From a virus: a stretch of DNA of 64,000 nt. The stretch lies in IMG/VR virus record IMGVR_UViG_3300042397_000787; one strand, 5' to 3'. Below are positions 1 through 6,620 of the stretch, one piece after another; positions within the stretch are counted from its first letter, which is position 1, and the number at the start of each line of letters is the position of its first letter. Made by a program: the position numbers and the translations under genes. Under the pieces are notes generated by a model. The model was given only the letters and a program-made list of their open reading frames with translations. It searched no databases and was not told where the DNA came from.

Positions 1-861
1 GTGCGATAGAAACTCTACGTTGAAGAACTCGCAATACTCCACATATTCAGCCGGGATAGTATAGCCACTGAGATTAATCAGCAGAGTTGCATCAAACTGG
101 TCTGAGAAATATTTTACCAAATCACGGACGACAAATGCACTACCAAAGAAAACTCTATCTACCTTCTTTTCTTTGATGAACGTAAAGAAGTTCGGCATAT
201 CATCATAGATATTATAGTAATAGTGCTTATCTGCTACCATAAGAGCAGGTAGCAAGAAGGTCATCATACAACTAACGTGATGCATGTTTCGGGTATGACA
301 AACTACGGATTGTGGTTCGAACTTGAAAACGCCTGTGTTTCTCTTTGAGAGGTCGAAGCAATCTTTCTGCGTGAAGTATACCGGTTTAGGTCTGCTGGTT
401 GTTCCACTTGATGAACCACAAAGAAAGATTTCATCGGGCGAACTATAATCTTCCAACATTTTTTCTGTGACGCTATCAATTTCTGTCTCGAAAATGTTCA
501 TTTTACAGTAGCGATTTACCATTTCCATATATGGTTCGCTTTTTGCAAGATATTCATCTACGACATGGAAGTCAATAGGATTAAATACCGAGGCTTTTGT
601 TCGGTCAATCGTTTCAACGGCCGCTGGCTTATCAAGTAATACCAGTCTCATTGCCAATTCACCCGCTGCAAAAATAAGGGCTAGATGATTTGGGCTTACC
701 ATGACAAGAGAAATGCCAAGGGAGTCTCCTCTCATGGCACCTCTTTTGACTAAGAGAAATTTCCATCGATCAATTAAGCTACACATTTCTTCGCGGGAAA
801 CTACATTTCCTTTTTCATCTTCATATGAAAAATTGTCAGTCAAAATGTTCTTGTTGATCAT
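1..861 (-). CDS. ANL-superfamily adenylate-forming (AMP-binding) enzyme, 3' end truncated by window edge
   Basis: Not in the ORF track. Manual translation from ATG at 861 is open to position 1 (MINKNILTDNF...CGSSSGTTSRPKPV...HTRNMHHVS...). Carries the SSGTTxxPK P-loop; paralog of 4516..5982. Confidence 0.8.
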   Translation of the reverse strand, partial: MINKNILTDNFSYEDEKGNVVSREEMCSLIDRWKFLLVKRGAMRGDSLGISLVMVSPNHLALIFAAGELAMRLVLLDKPAAVETIDRTKASVFNPIDFHVVDEYLAKSEPYMEMVNRYCKMNIFETEIDSVTEKMLEDYSSPDEIFLCGSSSGTTSRPKPVYFTQKDCFDLSKRNTGVFKFEPQSVVCHTRNMHHVSCMMTFLLPALMVADKHYYYNIYDDMPNFFTFIKEKKVDRVFFGSAFVVRDLVKYFSDQFDATLLINLSGYTIPAEYVEYCEFFNVEFLSH

Positions 862-875
862 AGGTTATCTCAAAC

Positions 876-963
876 TGGAGGAAGCGGTGGGATTCGAACC
901 CACGGTACCTTGCGGTACGACAGTTTTCAAGACTGTAGGTTTCAACCGCTCACCCACGCTTCC
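876..963 (-). tRNA. tRNA-Ser(TGA)
   Basis: GGAAGCG acceptor, anticodon loop CTTGAAA, long variable arm, GGTTCGAATCC, encoded CCA. Confidence 0.95.
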
Positions 964-967
964 AATA

Positions 968-1204
968 TTATACGCCCACGGCGCTACGATATGTATCTAG
1001 GATCATATCTTCTTCCTGTCTCACATGTGCTTCCAGCTTACGGAGACGCACAATCTTACGAACGGCCTTGGTATCAAACCCTTCACCCTTCAATTCAGAA
1101 TAGACTTCCTTACGGTCAATCTTCTTCACATCAATCTCGGCTTCGATGTTTTCAATACGCTCAATGAACAGGCGAAGTTGGTCTACTGCAATAATATCAC
1201 TCAT
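968..1204 (-). CDS. gapR: GapR/DUF2312 family nucleoid-associated DNA-binding protein
   Basis: QLRLFIERIENIE...KEVYSELKGEGFDTKAVRKIVRLRK...EEDMILDTY matches the family signature. Confidence 0.88.
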   Translation of the reverse strand: MSDIIAVDQLRLFIERIENIEAEIDVKKIDRKEVYSELKGEGFDTKAVRKIVRLRKLEAHVRQEEDMILDTYRSAVGV

Positions 1205-1225
1205 TATATATGTCCTTAAAAAAGA

Positions 1226-1301
1226 TGGATGCCCCTCCAGGGCTCGAACCTGGACTCTTCGGAATCAAAATCCAACGTGTTGCCAATTACACCAAGGGGC
1301 A
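1226..1301 (-). tRNA. tRNA-Gln(TTG)
   Basis: TGCCCCT acceptor, anticodon loop TTTTGAT, T-loop TTCGAGC, CCA. Confidence 0.93.
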
Positions 1302-1302
1302 A

Positions 1303-1378
1303 TGGTACGGGATGACGGGCTCGAACCGCCGACATTCTGCGTGTAAAGCAGACGCTCTACCAACTGAGCTAATCCCGC
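1303..1378 (-). tRNA. tRNA-Val(TAC)
   Basis: Canonical cloverleaf, anticodon loop TTTACAC, CCA. Confidence 0.95.
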
Positions 1379-2046
1379 GTAATTATGACCAGATCTTGTC
1401 TCCAGTCATTTGATATTATAGTCGTTTTATTGTATTTGTCAAGCATTTTTGAAAAATAATCAACGTTATAATATGTCCACAAGAAACGAACATTTTCTTG
1501 AGGAAACTCTTGTGTTATTTTAGACTTTGTTTTACCATCTACGTCACATTGATAGACGTAACAATAGTCCATATTTTCATGCTCTGGGAAAAATCTAAGA
1601 AGTCCTATTTCACCATAAACGGTTTCAGTATCTTTTCCGTATGCTGTCCAAGAAATTAACATTTTTCCGTTTTCGGCCAAGTGACTATAAAGCCACTCTA
1701 TTAGGGTCAACATCTCTTCTTTTGAAGTATGTGTGAAGACACTATGCGCTATGATTAAATCATACTTTTCTTCTATTACTGGAAGTTGTTCTTTTCCTCC
1801 AGGATTATATTCTGGATTAAATCCGTCATAATGGATGAAGTTTGCACCAGGAAACATACGTCTTCCTGTTTCAATTGCATCCTCACAGATATCAATGCCA
1901 GTATAATTTTCTTGAGGAAAAGATCCGTTAGAAGTTTCTAGAAATATACCATAGTTGCAACCAAAATCTAATACCTTTCGTTCATCGACATCTGGTATCA
2001 TATCTTTTATCACAGTATGAATGGGCAAATAATAGTGTATTAGCAT
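1369..2046 (-). CDS. Class I SAM-dependent methyltransferase
   Basis: VLDFGCNYG motif I, YTGIDI, YDLIIAHSVFTH. Confidence 0.85.
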   Translation of the reverse strand: MLIHYYLPIHTVIKDMIPDVDERKVLDFGCNYGIFLETSNGSFPQENYTGIDICEDAIETGRRMFPGANFIHYDGFNPEYNPGGKEQLPVIEEKYDLIIAHSVFTHTSKEEMLTLIEWLYSHLAENGKMLISWTAYGKDTETVYGEIGLLRFFPEHENMDYCYVYQCDVDGKTKSKITQEFPQENVRFLWTYYNVDYFSKMLDKYNKTTIISNDWRQDLVIITRD

Positions 2047-2487
2047 TTAGTGCCTCACTACATGGTCGGCAGCATGTGTTGCCGCAAACGAATCGGGTTT
2101 GATTTTAGCATCAATCCCTGTTGTTCCCTTAACATACCCCAATGCTTCTTTAACAGCAATGTTAGATTTATGCTTGGGATCTGGATTGATATCAAGGTGG
2201 ATTTCTAGATGCCGATTGCCAATTACATCAACAATTTCAGTTGCTGCTTCGATGGCAAATCCTGCTTCGGTAATCAGACGTTGACGTAAGTTACCAAAGT
2301 CACGCATTTCTACGTTTCTAGAAAATATTTTACCGCCATGCTTAGAATCCATGTGAAGAATAATGACGGTGGAATACTTGGCGTACCACTCACCGCTACG
2401 CTTTTTGAATCTAATAGAATCAGCACCTATATAAACAGATGACGTTTCACTGGAGTTTAGAATTGCTTCTCTTGCCTCATCATACAT
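2047..2487 (-). CDS. RNase H-like YkuK/DUF458 family protein
   Basis: VYIGADS, RLITEA, EIHLDINP, ATHAADH motifs. Confidence 0.75.
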   Translation of the reverse strand: MYDEAREAILNSSETSSVYIGADSIRFKKRSGEWYAKYSTVIILHMDSKHGGKIFSRNVEMRDFGNLRQRLITEAGFAIEAATEIVDVIGNRHLEIHLDINPDPKHKSNIAVKEALGYVKGTTGIDAKIKPDSFAATHAADHVVRH

Positions 2488-2505
2488 GCGTCACCTGTTT
2501 ATAAA

Positions 2506-2579
2506 TGGCGAAGGTGCCGGGATTCGAACCCGGAACGACGGTTTTGGAGACCGTAATGATACCATTTCACTACACCAAC
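2506..2579 (-). tRNA. tRNA-Trp(CCA)
   Basis: Anticodon loop CTCCAAA, T-arm CCGGG-TTCGAAT-CCCGG, CCA; two U-U mismatches in the acceptor stem. Confidence 0.88.
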
Positions 2580-2586
2580 AAAAAAA

Positions 2587-2663
2587 TGGTCTGGAATGTA
2601 GGATTCGAACCTACGACCCCCTGCTCCCAAAGCAGGTGCGCTACCAGGCTGCGCTAATCCCAG
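2587..2663 (-). tRNA. tRNA-Pro(TGG)
   Basis: Canonical cloverleaf, anticodon loop TTTGGGA, CCA. Confidence 0.95.
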
Positions 2664-5982: not shown

Positions 5983-6010
5983 AACATCTCCATTGTTTAA
6001 AACATAAAGC

Positions 6011-6159
6011 GAAGTGGGTGGATTCGGATATACCACCAAGCAACTAGCCAAATACCTATGTATCTATTTCGTCGCCACGACTCGTTAGCTGGTTAAGCAG
6101 GAGACCAATCCCCGAGTCTACCTTATCCCCTCTGGCAGGAGAGTATTCAGTCACACTTC
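6011..6159 (-). ncRNA. Structured ncRNA, possibly manA-motif-like
   Basis: Closing stem GAAGTG/CACTTC; internal helices GACTCG/CGAGTC, GGCGAC/GTTGCT, TAGATAC/GTATTTG, GGTGG/CCACC. Confidence 0.65.
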
Positions 6160-6185
6160 TTACAGCCTCCGTCGAGGCTGATATC

Positions 6186-6260
6186 TGGTTGCAGGAGTCG
6201 GACTTGAACCGACGACCTTCTGGTTATGAGCCAGACGAGCTACCACTGCTCCACCCTGCG
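6186..6260 (-). tRNA. tRNA-Met(CAT), initiator-like
   Basis: C1:A72 mismatch, anticodon loop CTCATAA, CCA. Confidence 0.92.
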
Positions 6261-6266
6261 TCAAAC

Positions 6267-6341
6267 TGGCTCCCTAAGATGGATTCGAACCACCGACCAA
6301 TTGATTAACAGTCAACTGCGCTACCGCTGCGCCATTAGGGA
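6267..6341 (-). tRNA. tRNA-Asn(GTT)
   Basis: TCCCTAA acceptor, anticodon loop CTGTTAA, GCCA. Confidence 0.95.
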
Positions 6342-6348
6342 ATAAAAA

Positions 6349-6424
6349 TGGTGCCCCCACGACGACTCGAACGCCGGACCTGATGATTACAAATCAACTG
6401 CTCTACCAACTGAGCTATAAGGGC
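6349..6424 (-). tRNA. tRNA-Thr(TGT)
   Basis: Canonical cloverleaf, anticodon loop TTTGTAA, CCA. Confidence 0.93.
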
Positions 6425-6428
6425 AAAA

Positions 6429-6517
6429 ACTTATTAGAAGAATGCACTGGACCAGCGCATGCCATTTGCAACTAACATCATCGGAATCGAACCGAGCAAT
6501 GCACTCATCTAATAAGT
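6429..6517 (-). ncRNA. YrlA/Y-RNA-like tRNA mimic
   Basis: About 20-bp terminal stem enclosing a T-arm (TCGG-TTCGATT-CCGA), a second hairpin and a CTGG segment, followed by a U-tract. Confidence 0.6.
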
Positions 6518-6560
6518 CATGTGGGAGAGCCGAAGCCCTCCCGACACAAACTTTATCTAA

Positions 6561-6574
6561 CAATGTCAAAGAAC
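6561..6574 (-). promoter_or_regulatory. boxA-like antitermination element in the tRNA operon leader
   Basis: GTTCTTTGACATTG just downstream of the promoters, followed by a UUCG hairpin (6520..6547). Confidence 0.55.
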
Positions 6575-6582
6575 CGAAACTC

Positions 6583-6620
6583 TATTTATACACTTTACTA
6601 CACTTTTTAGTGTAAGTCAA
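6583..6620 (-). promoter_or_regulatory. Tandem sigma70-type (TTGACT-17-TAAAGT) and late (TATAAATA) promoters of the tRNA operon
   Basis: Consensus matches with an AT-rich UP region. Confidence 0.65.

Follow-up and report, generated by a model that had tools for sequence, protein, structure and literature searches.

The first 6,620 nucleotides of the window, i.e. of the 64,000-nucleotide stretch analysed here, come from an uncultivated freshwater T4-like myophage and probably represent an accessory cassette within its hyperplastic tRNA island; the cassette contains an undescribed phage-specific module comprising a ligase of the ANL fold and a small DUF6356 protein. On the minus strand this segment harbors two ANL-fold paralogues together with tRNAs, structured RNAs and small protein genes (Table 1). 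We assign a probability of about 0.6 to the following reading as a whole: the segment is part of a tRNA/ncRNA island with protein-coding cargo in slots between tRNA blocks, the tRNA neighbourhood is the place where accessory genes build up in these genomes, the ligases are cargo and not RNA-processing partners, and ligase 2 together with DUF6356 forms a horizontally acquired phage-specific two-gene module. The underlying record has a length of 103.6 kb (completeness 59%) and a GC content of 42.5%.

Table 1. Features of the tRNA island and its flank, in window coordinates.
Feature	Position	Strand	Basis or remark
Ligase 1 (clade A ANL paralogue)	1..861	-	N-terminal 287 of 426 aa; L002:1321-2601
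13 confident tRNAs (Ser, Gln, Val, Trp, Pro, Gly, Asp, Phe, Leu, Ala, Met, Asn, Thr)	876..6424	-	ARAGORN and Rfam
GapR-like DNA-binding protein, 78 aa	968..1204	-	PF10073, 88.2 bits
SAM-dependent methyltransferase, 225 aa	1369..2046	-	Methyltransf_23/12/25
RNaseH_like (YkuK-type) protein, 146 aa	2047..2487	-	PF04308, 81.2 bits; phrog_11311
Small ORF, 62 aa, lipoprotein-type signal	2673..2861	-	Cys after hydrophobic stretch, read from sequence; no Pfam family match
Aberrant tRNA-like element	2919..3010	-	relaxed ARAGORN only
Small ORF, 102 aa	3085..3393	-	no family match
Small ORF, 95 aa	3419..3706	-	no family match
tRNA-Tyr(GTA), long variable arm	3834..3918	-	relaxed ARAGORN only; missed at default thresholds
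Conserved structured RNA, 127 nt, between tRNA-Ala and tRNA-Leu	4090..4216	-	covariation; z -2.42
DUF6356 protein, 77 aa	4301..4534	-	PF19883, 59.8 bits; conserved partner of clade B ligase
Ligase 2 (clade B ANL enzyme)	4516..5982	-	488 aa from ATG
manA RNA	6007..6179	-	RF01745; 65.1 bits, gathering score 55.2
Strongly structured leader or tRNA-like RNA, island head	6425..6560	-	MFE -52.2 kcal/mol, z -5.45
TATAAATA motif (T4 late-promoter-like)	6583..6590	-	heads tRNA island
NUMOD3-motif protein (homing-endonuclease-type DNA-binding motif), 168 aa	6641..7147	-	PF07460, 38 bits; flanks island

The initial annotation had described two ANL proteins with four common motif blocks. In line with this claim, ligases 1 and 2 align over 198 aa with 30% identity (BLASTP E 3e-24), and the aligned part includes all four blocks (IDxWKxxL, SSGTTxxPK, HxRNxxHxS and FxLPxL). 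Both ligases are real, and a third ANL paralogue is located outside the window, 11 kb past the tRNA block. Ligases 1 and 3 belong to clade A and are stand-alone, fast-diverging paralogues, and ligase 2 is a member of clade B. The ligase 1 gene, which ends 420 bases before the window start, retains all ANL core motifs and has no DUF6356 partner of its own. For ligase 2, the alignments of homologues begin at the assigned start Met. The Pfam AMP-binding model (cut-off 29.9 bits) scores ligase 1 at 34.1 bits and ligase 2, slightly below the cut-off, at 26.7 bits.

The AF2 model of ligase 2 (pLDDT 82.6) matched ANL enzymes at a Foldseek E of ~1e-19 and a VIA Z of ~31 over 340-450 residues, and thus exhibits the two-domain fold of the ANL superfamily (PF00501), which comprises acyl/aryl-CoA synthetases, NRPS adenylation domains and luciferases. 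As in this superfamily, the P-loop SSGTTxxPK, the A5 Thr, the A7 Asp, the A8 Gly-Arg hinge and the A10 Lys are present, and among 13 divergent members, including all three paralogues, the A3 Ser/Gly/Lys, A5, A7, A8 and A10 residues are invariant. Ligase 2 thus has the full ANL fold, judged by its model, and every core catalytic motif. The phage ligases differ from known ANL enzymes in that their identity to any solved structure is 10-17%, that their NCBIfam scores of 15-29 bits fall far under all equivalog cut-offs, and that they form a separate clade seen solely on viral or metagenomic contigs. At E ≤ 1e-3 the family comprises 709 representative clusters, a number that falls to 211 at E ≤ 1e-30, and relatives are present on 92 IMG/VR contigs. 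Among 50,697 cultured phage records no relative was detected, and one pattern scan of 185,579 species genomes yielded no match to the ligase pattern.

By sequence and structure, the ligases match best to M. tuberculosis FadD13 (3r44, 3t5b), an acyl-ACP synthetase (8i3i), a long-chain acyl-CoA synthetase and 4-chlorobenzoyl-CoA ligase (3cw8). The phage enzymes might therefore be ordinary acyl-CoA (fatty-acid or aromatic-acid) synthetases that serve as auxiliary metabolic genes and reprogramme host lipid or carbon metabolism, with DUF6356 as an unrelated neighbour. The conserved His at the A4 position, which we take to be a feature of CoA ligases as Asp is of amino-acid-activating domains, points in the same direction. 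However, the structural matches of ligase 2 are tied within ~1.5 Z units at this low identity, so that an ANL subfamily is not assignable. Together with the equivalog scores, the purely viral or metagenomic clade, the empty genome scan, the location next to DUF6356 in either gene order, and three paralogues that evolve much faster than the phage backbone, which is unusual for a housekeeping-type metabolic gene, this makes the acyl-CoA synthetase explanation improbable.

The robust signal is that the partner travelling with the ligase family across phages is DUF6356, and not the tRNAs. The 3′-end of ligase 2 and the DUF6356 gene have 19 nt in common, which bears out the overlap with the ligase stop described initially; the methyltransferase and the YkuK-type RNase H fold are borne out by Pfam. 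In about 40 of 88 ligase loci a DUF6356 gene runs in the same direction as the ligase at a spacing of -35 to +114 nt, and after dereplication at 60% identity it adjoins the ligase in 18 of the resulting 38 clusters. Conversely, 30 of 32 assessable DUF-centred viral loci show an abutting ligase; in some of them DUF6356 precedes the ligase with a 4-nt overlap. The adjacency, often with overlap, is kept across lineages with 28-100% ligase identity, and the fact that either gene may come first speaks for a functional partnership. In the ligase tree the pairing is confined to clade B. DUF6356 without a ligase occurs in L091-L093 and L102, which counts against the module. The pair is a real, new two-gene phage module, and we know of no characterised ANL enzyme with DUF6356 as its partner.

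Small proteins are genetically coupled to ANL enzymes in other systems, namely MbtH-like proteins with NRPS adenylation domains and DltX/DltC with DltA. By analogy, the position of a gene for a protein of ~80 aa directly beside that of an adenylating enzyme, often with overlap, points to a stoichiometric accessory function. DUF6356 differs from these partners, as it matches PF19883 only and neither MbtH nor PP-binding families, and its AF2 model (pLDDT 94.8) is all-helical, with four helices, a long hydrophobic central helix and conserved histidines in a basic, His-rich protein. The structure search returned no informative neighbour for it. As noted initially for the window, no carrier protein is present: the entire 103.6-kb record lacks a PP-binding domain, and no condensation domain or MBOAT-type partner was seen in it either, which sets the phage pair apart from NRPS and Dlt systems.

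The initial annotation had proposed a system in which the ligases acylate or modify neighbouring RNAs, acting together with the methyltransferase, the RNase H-like protein, the tRNAs and the structured RNAs. The interleaving of these genes with tRNAs, the manA RNA 25 nt upstream of the ligase 2 ATG, and the synteny of the arrangement in five relatives (L005, L006, L011-L013) are consistent with this proposal. Moreover, two additional, otherwise unrelated contexts (L104/L108/L111 and L059) also have the ligase-DUF6356 cassette within tRNA arrays, in both immediately after tRNA-Thr(TGT); recurrence in three contexts, own lineage included, could exceed a hotspot effect, the contexts being uncorrected for relatedness. 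Across the family, however, the ligases mostly reside away from tRNAs, at scattered loci: a tRNA within 1.5 kb is found in 11 of the 38 clusters and in none of the remaining 27, and more than 60 of 80 ligase loci have no tRNA within 10 kb. No Rfam RNA was detected near the ligase in 8 diverse loci, the ligases persist in close kin that have lost tRNAs, manA, the methyltransferase or the RNase H-like gene, and 11 kb separate the third paralogue from the island. With a median pI of 5.7 the ligases are acidic, which is weak evidence in the same direction. Likewise, the co-oriented unit described initially does exist but is not special: co-orientation is uninformative because nearly the entire record runs one way, its minus strand carrying 84 of the 91 ORFs of 150 aa or more. 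As DUF6356 and not the tRNAs travels with the ligases, an RNA-acylating system is highly improbable. What survives, in altered form, of the proposed undescribed phage system that makes or modifies something is the ligase with DUF6356, often accompanied by N-terminal-twitch radical SAM genes, and not an RNA-centred one.

The RNA inventory itself largely stood. Ten further tRNAs follow directly beyond the window start, and the island has at least 24 tRNAs. Of the 14 tRNAs counted initially in the window, 13 are confident and the last, tRNA-Tyr(GTA), is weak, although its MFE fold is a cloverleaf (z -2.35) and homologues are called in L005 and L006. The single rearranged tRNA corresponds to the aberrant element, in which the acceptor stem and T arm look canonical and the middle is rearranged; it folds no better than shuffles (z -0.61), and a contig from an RNA library contains a 77-nt stretch identical to part of it. 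All three structured RNAs were recovered, two of them, the conserved one and that at the island head, without an assigned family. The conserved one is shared by five phages (window, L005, L006, L012, L013), 6 of its 38 predicted pairs show a compensatory change among them, and it has no Rfam match at E ≤ 1. For the RNA at the island head, none of 200 shuffles folded as well, and relaxed ARAGORN places a tRNA-like element at 6471-6569. The manA RNA agrees with the published motif (RF01745; Weinberg et al. 2010, PMC2864571) in being a full-length match over the gathering score, in a T4-like phage and a potential 5′-UTR; in contrast to that description, the habitat is lake water and not marine, and the downstream gene is an ANL ligase, outside the gene classes of that paper. 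The ligase link is not conserved: manA lies directly upstream of ligase 2 in L011 and L012 too, three tRNAs intervene in L005, and it was not detected in L013, L006 or the 8 diverse loci.

With regard to expression signals, 12 copies of TATAAATA are found in the window, every one on the minus strand, compared with 3.4 expected; besides the copy heading the island, a second one at 3739-3746 is positioned just upstream of the 95-aa ORF, which is ~76% conserved in L011-L013. A sigma-70-like site (6620-6592) is located near the island head.

Comparison with close kin fits the simpler alternative considered initially, that the tRNA region is an insertion hotspot. L011, whose flanks show 92-93% nucleotide identity to the source phage, keeps both ligases and DUF6356, but ~3 kb are missing, and with them about ten tRNAs, the methyltransferase and the RNase H-like gene. 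The methyltransferase is a variable cargo gene; its segment (window ~1378-2053) is missing from L012 as well as L011. The RNase H-like gene is present in L005, L006, L012 and L013, and the slot after it contains a methyltransferase, an OMP-like gene or an unknown gene, depending on the phage. A GOLLD RNA insert is present in L013 and L006, and the methyltransferase, manA and GOLLD are simple presence/absence differences. The GapR-like gene is syntenic in L005, L006 and L012, and the NUMOD3 gene in L005, L006 and L011-L013. The GC content is 37.4% for ligase 2, 31.6% for DUF6356 and 34.1% for the methyltransferase, versus 42.5% genome-wide.

In T4-like phages, stable RNAs and homing-endonuclease genes accompany a hyperplastic tRNA cluster. 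The island resembles this region in that small ORFs and stable RNAs other than tRNAs are interspersed in a co-oriented tRNA block, in its NUMOD3-type flank and in a gene content that differs between near-identical phages. It differs in being larger, in containing manA and the conserved 127-nt RNA, with GOLLD in kin, and in its ANL ligases. Comparable hypervariable regions of pelagimyophages and cyanomyophages are the subject of PMC7029224, which notes radical SAM cassettes as variable cargo and makes no mention of a ligase or AMP-binding gene.

The ligases are hypervariable among kin. Phages with 80-90% identity in the flanking genes share just 42-48% in ligase 2, and ligase 1 of the source phage shares 57% identity with that of L012, while GapR is 100% and ligase 2 98% identical. 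Host-takeover or counter-defence effectors with targets differing between hosts would explain this hypervariability, and the genes do reside in variable regions beside homing-endonuclease-type genes. However, ligase 2 (dN/dS 0.06-0.10) and DUF6356 (0.04-0.10) are both under strong purifying selection. As dN/dS remains below 0.11 in kin, the divergence looks like allele replacement by recombination and not positive selection, which renders fast-evolving effectors quite unlikely.

The pair is often found beside N-terminal-twitch radical SAM genes. NF033640 genes are located within 5 kb of the ligase in 11 of the 38 clusters, which represent several separate lineages. Four genes make up a tight operon, ligase-DUF6356-rSAM-rSAM, in L094-L096; the ligase of L009, L010 and L036 has flanking radical SAM genes, and the syntenic relative L005 carries one within its tRNA island. 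The module could therefore belong to a peptide- or cofactor-maturation pathway in which the pair and these enzymes act on a small peptide or metabolite, its radical SAM genes here lying in the unsequenced 41% of the genome or being supplied by the host. Against this, the available 103.6 kb contains no radical SAM gene, 27 of the 38 clusters have none nearby, neither a precursor peptide nor a recognition-element (RRE) protein was identified, and phages of this kind often carry radical SAM cassettes as variable cargo in any case (PMC7029224). We thus regard this pathway, including the proposed whereabouts of its radical SAM genes, as conceivable but doubtful.

In the favored reading of ligase 2 and DUF6356 as a horizontally acquired two-gene module, the ligase would adenylate a carboxylate to an acyl-AMP, and the acyl group might then go to a thiol, amine or hydroxyl of a small molecule or peptide, and not of RNA. 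By analogy with the small partners of other adenylating enzymes, DUF6356 may act as a stoichiometric accessory subunit, be it a membrane tether, a metal-binding or an activating partner, and in many phages the pair would work with one to three N-terminal-twitch radical SAM enzymes.

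The ligases of the tRNA island retain an intact ANL catalytic apparatus, and ligase 2 has a tightly coupled small partner. As the initial annotation had concluded from shared motif blocks, which are indeed present, ligases 1 and 2 are paralogues, aligning over 198 aa at 30% identity (E 3e-24). A third paralogue, ligase 3, is located ~11 kb past the tRNA block among unannotated small ORFs, with a zeta-toxin/AAA-kinase-like gene and an NT5C nucleotidase gene nearby. The A3 P-loop ([ST][ST]G[ST]TGxPKG) reads SSGTTNTPK in ligase 2, SSGTTSRPK in ligase 1 and TSGTTGVSK in ligase 3, and its Ser, Gly and Lys do not vary in an alignment of 13 divergent members, the three paralogues included. 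In the same alignment, in which columns were matched to motif names by position and pattern and not by structure, the A5 Thr (T313), the A7 Asp (D367) and the A10 Lys (K472) are likewise invariant, and the A8 residues G383/R384 are at least 90% conserved. Because these motifs are kept, the ligases are probably catalytically active.

The AF2 model of ligase 2 (pLDDT 82.6) shows the large N-terminal and small C-terminal domains of the fold. Foldseek matched it to FscC, FadD10 and Acs at E ~1e-19, and VIA gave Z scores of 30-31.7 with an rmsd of 3-6 Å over 340-450 residues. Fatty-acyl-CoA ligases, acyl-ACP synthetases, aryl-CoA ligases and NRPS A domains were tied as structural matches (10-17% identity), and every NCBIfam equivalog score fell far short of its cut-off. 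The Pfam AMP-binding family PF00501 (gathering score 29.9) matches the ligase 1 fragment at 34.1 bits and ligase 2 at 26.7 bits, just under the gathering score; most ligase homologues have a precomputed match. In line with the initial annotation, which had seen no carrier protein, PF00550 (PP-binding) matches nothing in the 103.6-kb record, with the control positive in 11 of 14 genomes; since the record is only 59% complete, this is no proof of absence from the whole phage. In this respect the available record departs from the arrangement of an NRPS-type stand-alone adenylation enzyme, whose cognate carrier protein is encoded with it.

When ORFs within 5 kb of the ligases were clustered, DUF6356 (PF19883; 76-111 aa) emerged as the one dominant neighbour. 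The island copy scores 59.8 bits over 58 of 64 positions (gathering score 24.4) and 59.5 bits in the genome search. DUF6356 lies on the same strand as the ligase in ~40 of 88 loci, at a spacing of -35 to +114 nt; the ligases of these loci are 28-100% identical. Conversely, a ligase abuts DUF6356 in 30 of the 32 assessable viral loci centred on the latter, and in eleven of these 30 the gene order is reversed, with a 4-nt overlap. In a quick tree (SH-aLRT support, midpoint root) the pairing is limited to the clade of ligase 2 (clade B); members of clade A, to which ligases 1 and 3 belong, never occur with DUF6356, and we observed no other conserved partner for this clade. Between close kin, dN/dS is 0.04-0.10 for both ligase 2 and DUF6356, indicating strong purifying selection.

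The AF2 model of DUF6356 (pLDDT 94.8) consists of four helices, the central one being as hydrophobic as a membrane span in most members; H5, H16, S34, H37, P41 and Y68 are invariant. DUF6356 is basic, whereas the ligases are acidic. A Foldseek search of the PDB returned nothing at E<=1e-3, the best rows including the CnrX metal sensor at a non-significant E of 3.7, and none of the ESM Atlas neighbours, with TM values all below about 0.5, was informative. Prediction of the complex with ligase 2 scored 0.00, a 'no answer' that weighs neither for nor against binding. DUF6356 was not found fused into longer proteins, which is weak evidence, and the long ligase homologues P0025 (a tandem ligase), P0101 and P0107 contain no DUF6356 domain. 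A protein-atlas feature search returned only DUF6356 clusters, mostly viral. PF19883 also matches in Caulobacter vibrioides, and a contig scan of a genome collection detected DUF6356 on a single 2.8-kb MAG contig. Tblastn against 50,697 cultured phage records yielded no match for either DUF6356 or ligase 2.

One phage type (L091-L093 and L102) carries DUF6356 without an adjoining ligase. Here, ClpX, ClpS, ClpP, HSP20 and ribosomal protein S21 are encoded nearby, and a radical SAM gene follows ~3 kb downstream. A 470-aa protein near DUF6356 in L091 was considered as a divergent ligase and rejected (hhalign probability 0.2). Radical SAM proteins with an N-terminal twitch (NF033640, 166-419 bits) are the second recurrent neighbour of the ligases, found no more than 5 kb away in 11 of the 38 ligase clusters; in loci L094-L096 they form a tight operon in the order ligase-DUF6356-radical SAM-radical SAM. 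The 103.6-kb record of the window phage (59% complete) contains no Radical_SAM match.

A profile search of 1.84 billion representatives retrieved 709 ligase clusters with a threshold of E<=1e-3 and 211 with one of E<=1e-30. The family represents a distinct ANL clade that comprises, at 50% identity, no fewer than 200 clusters, from viral and metagenomic contigs. Ninety-two IMG/VR contigs carry a relative; a single peptide-pattern scan of 185,579 species genomes found none. Phages that share 80-90% identity in the flanking genes share only 42-48% in ligase 2. Likewise, ligase 1 of the window phage and of its syntenic relative L012 are 57% identical, with GapR at 100% and ligase 2 at 98%. The L012 ligase 1 has Gln in place of the P-loop Lys (TSGTTGQGQ) and for this reason may be inactive or altered. 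The ligase paralogues thus diverge much faster than the phage backbone. As dN/dS between close kin is low, the pattern resembles the replacement of alleles through recombination within a variable region. Between the window phage and its relative L011, dS is 0.54 for DUF6356 and 0.10 for the overlapping ligase 2, a fivefold difference that suggests a recombination breakpoint at the junction of the two genes.

The initial annotation had further proposed that the ligases act on the RNAs encoded beside them, with an insertion hotspot in the tRNA region as the simpler alternative. All elements it named, the ligases, tRNAs, structured RNAs and further proteins, are present. Pfam supports the methyltransferase, DUF6356 and the RNase H-like protein (PF04308, RNaseH_like/YkuK; 81.2 bits, gathering score 25; phrog_11311 at 143.9 bits), and identifies a GapR-like and a NUMOD3 protein in addition. 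As for the fourteen tRNAs and one rearranged tRNA, 13 were called with confidence, while a tRNA-Tyr and the aberrant tRNA-like element appeared at relaxed thresholds only; ten other tRNAs lie just past the window start. Between the tRNA-like element and tRNA-Pro we observed a 62-aa ORF with a lipoprotein-like signal peptide, an Ala/Thr/Glu-rich tail and a GC content (49.7%) above the genome average. The common orientation of the genes, noted earlier, is uninformative as to a functional unit, because the minus strand holds 84 of the record's 91 ORFs that reach 150 aa and all twelve copies in the window (3.4 expected) of TATAAATA, the T4 late-promoter consensus. Just upstream of tRNA-Val, the methyltransferase gene contains a perfect TTGACA-16-TATAAT sequence in its 3' end.

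Coordinates of features in the window and in compared loci (positions without prefix are window positions)
Feature	Position	Strand	Remark
Ligase 1	1-861	minus	N-terminal part of 426-aa protein
Ligase 2	4516-5982		488 aa
Ligase 3	G000:C1:19256-20617 (L004:7257-8618)	minus	453 aa; clade A; outside window
Ligase 1 of L012	L012:9942-11324
DUF6356 without adjoining ligase	L091-L093: 8001-8243
Confident tRNAs (13)	876-6424
tRNA-Tyr	3834-3918		relaxed thresholds only
Aberrant tRNA-like element	2919-3010		relaxed thresholds only
62-aa ORF	2673-2861	minus
TTGACA-16-TATAAT	1442-1415
TATAAATA, example sites	6583-6590; 3739-3746	minus
manA RNA (RF01745)	6007-6179	minus	model positions 1-192 of 192
~130-nt RNA, window	4090-4216	minus	127 nt
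~130-nt RNA, relatives	L005:9642-9788; L006:12783-12925; L012:7691-7832; L013:8195-8337
Island leader RNA	6425-6560	minus
tRNA-like element in leader region	6471-6569		97-99 nt; relaxed ARAGORN
GOLLD RNA	L006:12156-12622; L013:7518-7984
wcaG RNA	L108:11048-11147

Acylation of RNA by the ANL ligases is not supported by the comparison of loci. In a set of 80 viral loci, taken with flanks of up to 10 kb per side, only 8 have a tRNA within 3 kb of the ligase, and more than 60 contain no tRNA at all. After addition of further loci and dereplication of the ligases at 60% identity, 11 of 38 clusters have a tRNA within 1.5 kb; these fall in three genomic contexts, namely the phage's own lineage, a second lineage and locus L059. 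Neither manA nor any other Rfam RNA was found near the ligase in eight diverse loci. Net charge and pI, considered as indicators of RNA binding, are weak, because many RNA enzymes are acidic overall, as the ligases are. In the second lineage, the order is tRNA-Arg-Asn-Thr, then DUF6356-ligase, sometimes a radical SAM gene, and then tRNA-Leu-Gly-Val. The cassette lies directly behind tRNA-Thr in two further lineages, a recurrence that, as an uncorrected tally, may be more than coincidence.

The insertion hotspot fits these data better. L011, with flanks of 92-93% nucleotide identity to the window phage and 99% in ligase 2, keeps both ligases and DUF6356 and is devoid of a stretch of ~3 kb with about ten tRNAs and the genes for the methyltransferase and the RNase H-like protein. 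The methyltransferase segment is also missing from L012, and the slot following the RNase H-like gene is occupied by a methyltransferase, an OMP-like gene or an unknown gene, depending on the phage. The GC contents of the methyltransferase (34.1%), DUF6356 (31.6%) and ligase 2 (37.4%) are all below that of the genome (42.5%). Since the ligases are rarely near tRNAs, the island is mosaic among kin, the slot content is variable and the GC content is low, we read the region as a cargo hotspot.

Some structured RNAs of the island vary as well. Directly upstream of ligase 2 lies a full-length manA RNA (covariance model, 65.1 bits; gathering score 55.2). Its presence varies between close kin: it is not found in L013 or L006, and in L005 three tRNAs intervene between it and the ligase. 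The manA motif has been described as almost exclusively marine (PMC2864571), whereas here it occurs in a lake-water phage. Five phages share a conserved ~130-nt RNA, located between tRNA-Ala and tRNA-Leu, with 38 predicted pairs, 6 of them with compensatory changes, plus a variable inserted hairpin. No Rfam family matches it at E<=1. A candidate for a new stable RNA of phages, it would be released by tRNA processing. The fold of the island leader RNA is far more stable than those of shuffled sequences (-52.2 kcal/mol, z -5.45) and contains a T-loop-like GGTTCGATTCC motif. In L006 and L013, unlike in the window phage, DUF6356 and tRNA-Ala are separated by an inserted GOLLD RNA (183-184 bits), in which a tRNA-Leu-like element is embedded. 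A wcaG RNA (95 bits) was observed within the tRNA array of an unrelated ligase-carrying phage. The RNA-library contigs X18 and X20 overlap parts of ligase 2, DUF6356, the ~130-nt RNA and the tRNA-like element; as such libraries may contain DNA, this coverage is not proof of transcription, and uncovered stretches carry no meaning.

The window covers bases 31900-95899 of the 103.6-kb IMG/VR virus record, the completeness of which is an estimate (59%). More than 90% of the sampled words of window positions 1-7200 are present in seventeen lake-water metagenome runs, which indicates a freshwater phage. Its flap endonuclease shares ~50% identity with the enzyme of Methylophilales phage Melnitz and 45-48% with cyanomyovirus proteins, and matches about 1,700 T4-like records. 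Together with the ribonucleotide reductase, glutaredoxin and T4-type RNase H adjoining the region in relatives, this points to an uncultivated T4-like myophage. The ANL superfamily is already known, adenylate-forming enzymes being among the most versatile activating enzymes, and the architecture of tRNA islands is known in kind from T4-like phages. We know of no function for adenylate-forming enzymes in lytic T4-like phages of aquatic bacteria. The island architecture is also known in kind from PMC7029224. Our literature search yielded nothing on the function of DUF6356, no paper linking DUF6356, AMP-binding enzymes and SPASM/twitch radical SAM proteins in phages, and no earlier description of the ANL-DUF6356 pairing, with or without the N-terminal-twitch radical SAM protein.

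As to mechanism, the ligase would form an acyl-adenylate, from which the acyl moiety passes to an acceptor other than RNA. DUF6356 would serve in stoichiometric amounts as an accessory subunit (a tether, metal site or activator), analogous to the small proteins beside other adenylating enzymes but with a different fold. In many phages, radical SAM enzymes would process the product further. More tentatively, at a probability of about 0.3, we propose that the ANL ligase and DUF6356, in many phages plus the N-terminal-twitch radical SAM protein, constitute a new two-component acyl-activating system, so far confined to viral and metagenomic contigs. DUF6356 would be its obligate small subunit and might be embedded in the membrane or bind metal, and a new acylated product would be made or attached during infection. 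Repeated lodging directly behind tRNA-Thr in tRNA arrays might reflect co-expression with a translation-takeover programme, or even an RNA-linked substrate.

Taken together, DUF6356 gains a first functional context, as it travels with an ANL clade and often with an unusual radical SAM family, and the attractive but unsupported idea of RNA acylation by ANL enzymes is dropped. The ligase and DUF6356 offer a tractable two-protein target for biochemistry. Moreover, cargo genes and structured RNAs, including manA, GOLLD, wcaG and an unassigned conserved RNA, collect in the tRNA islands of freshwater T4-like phages.
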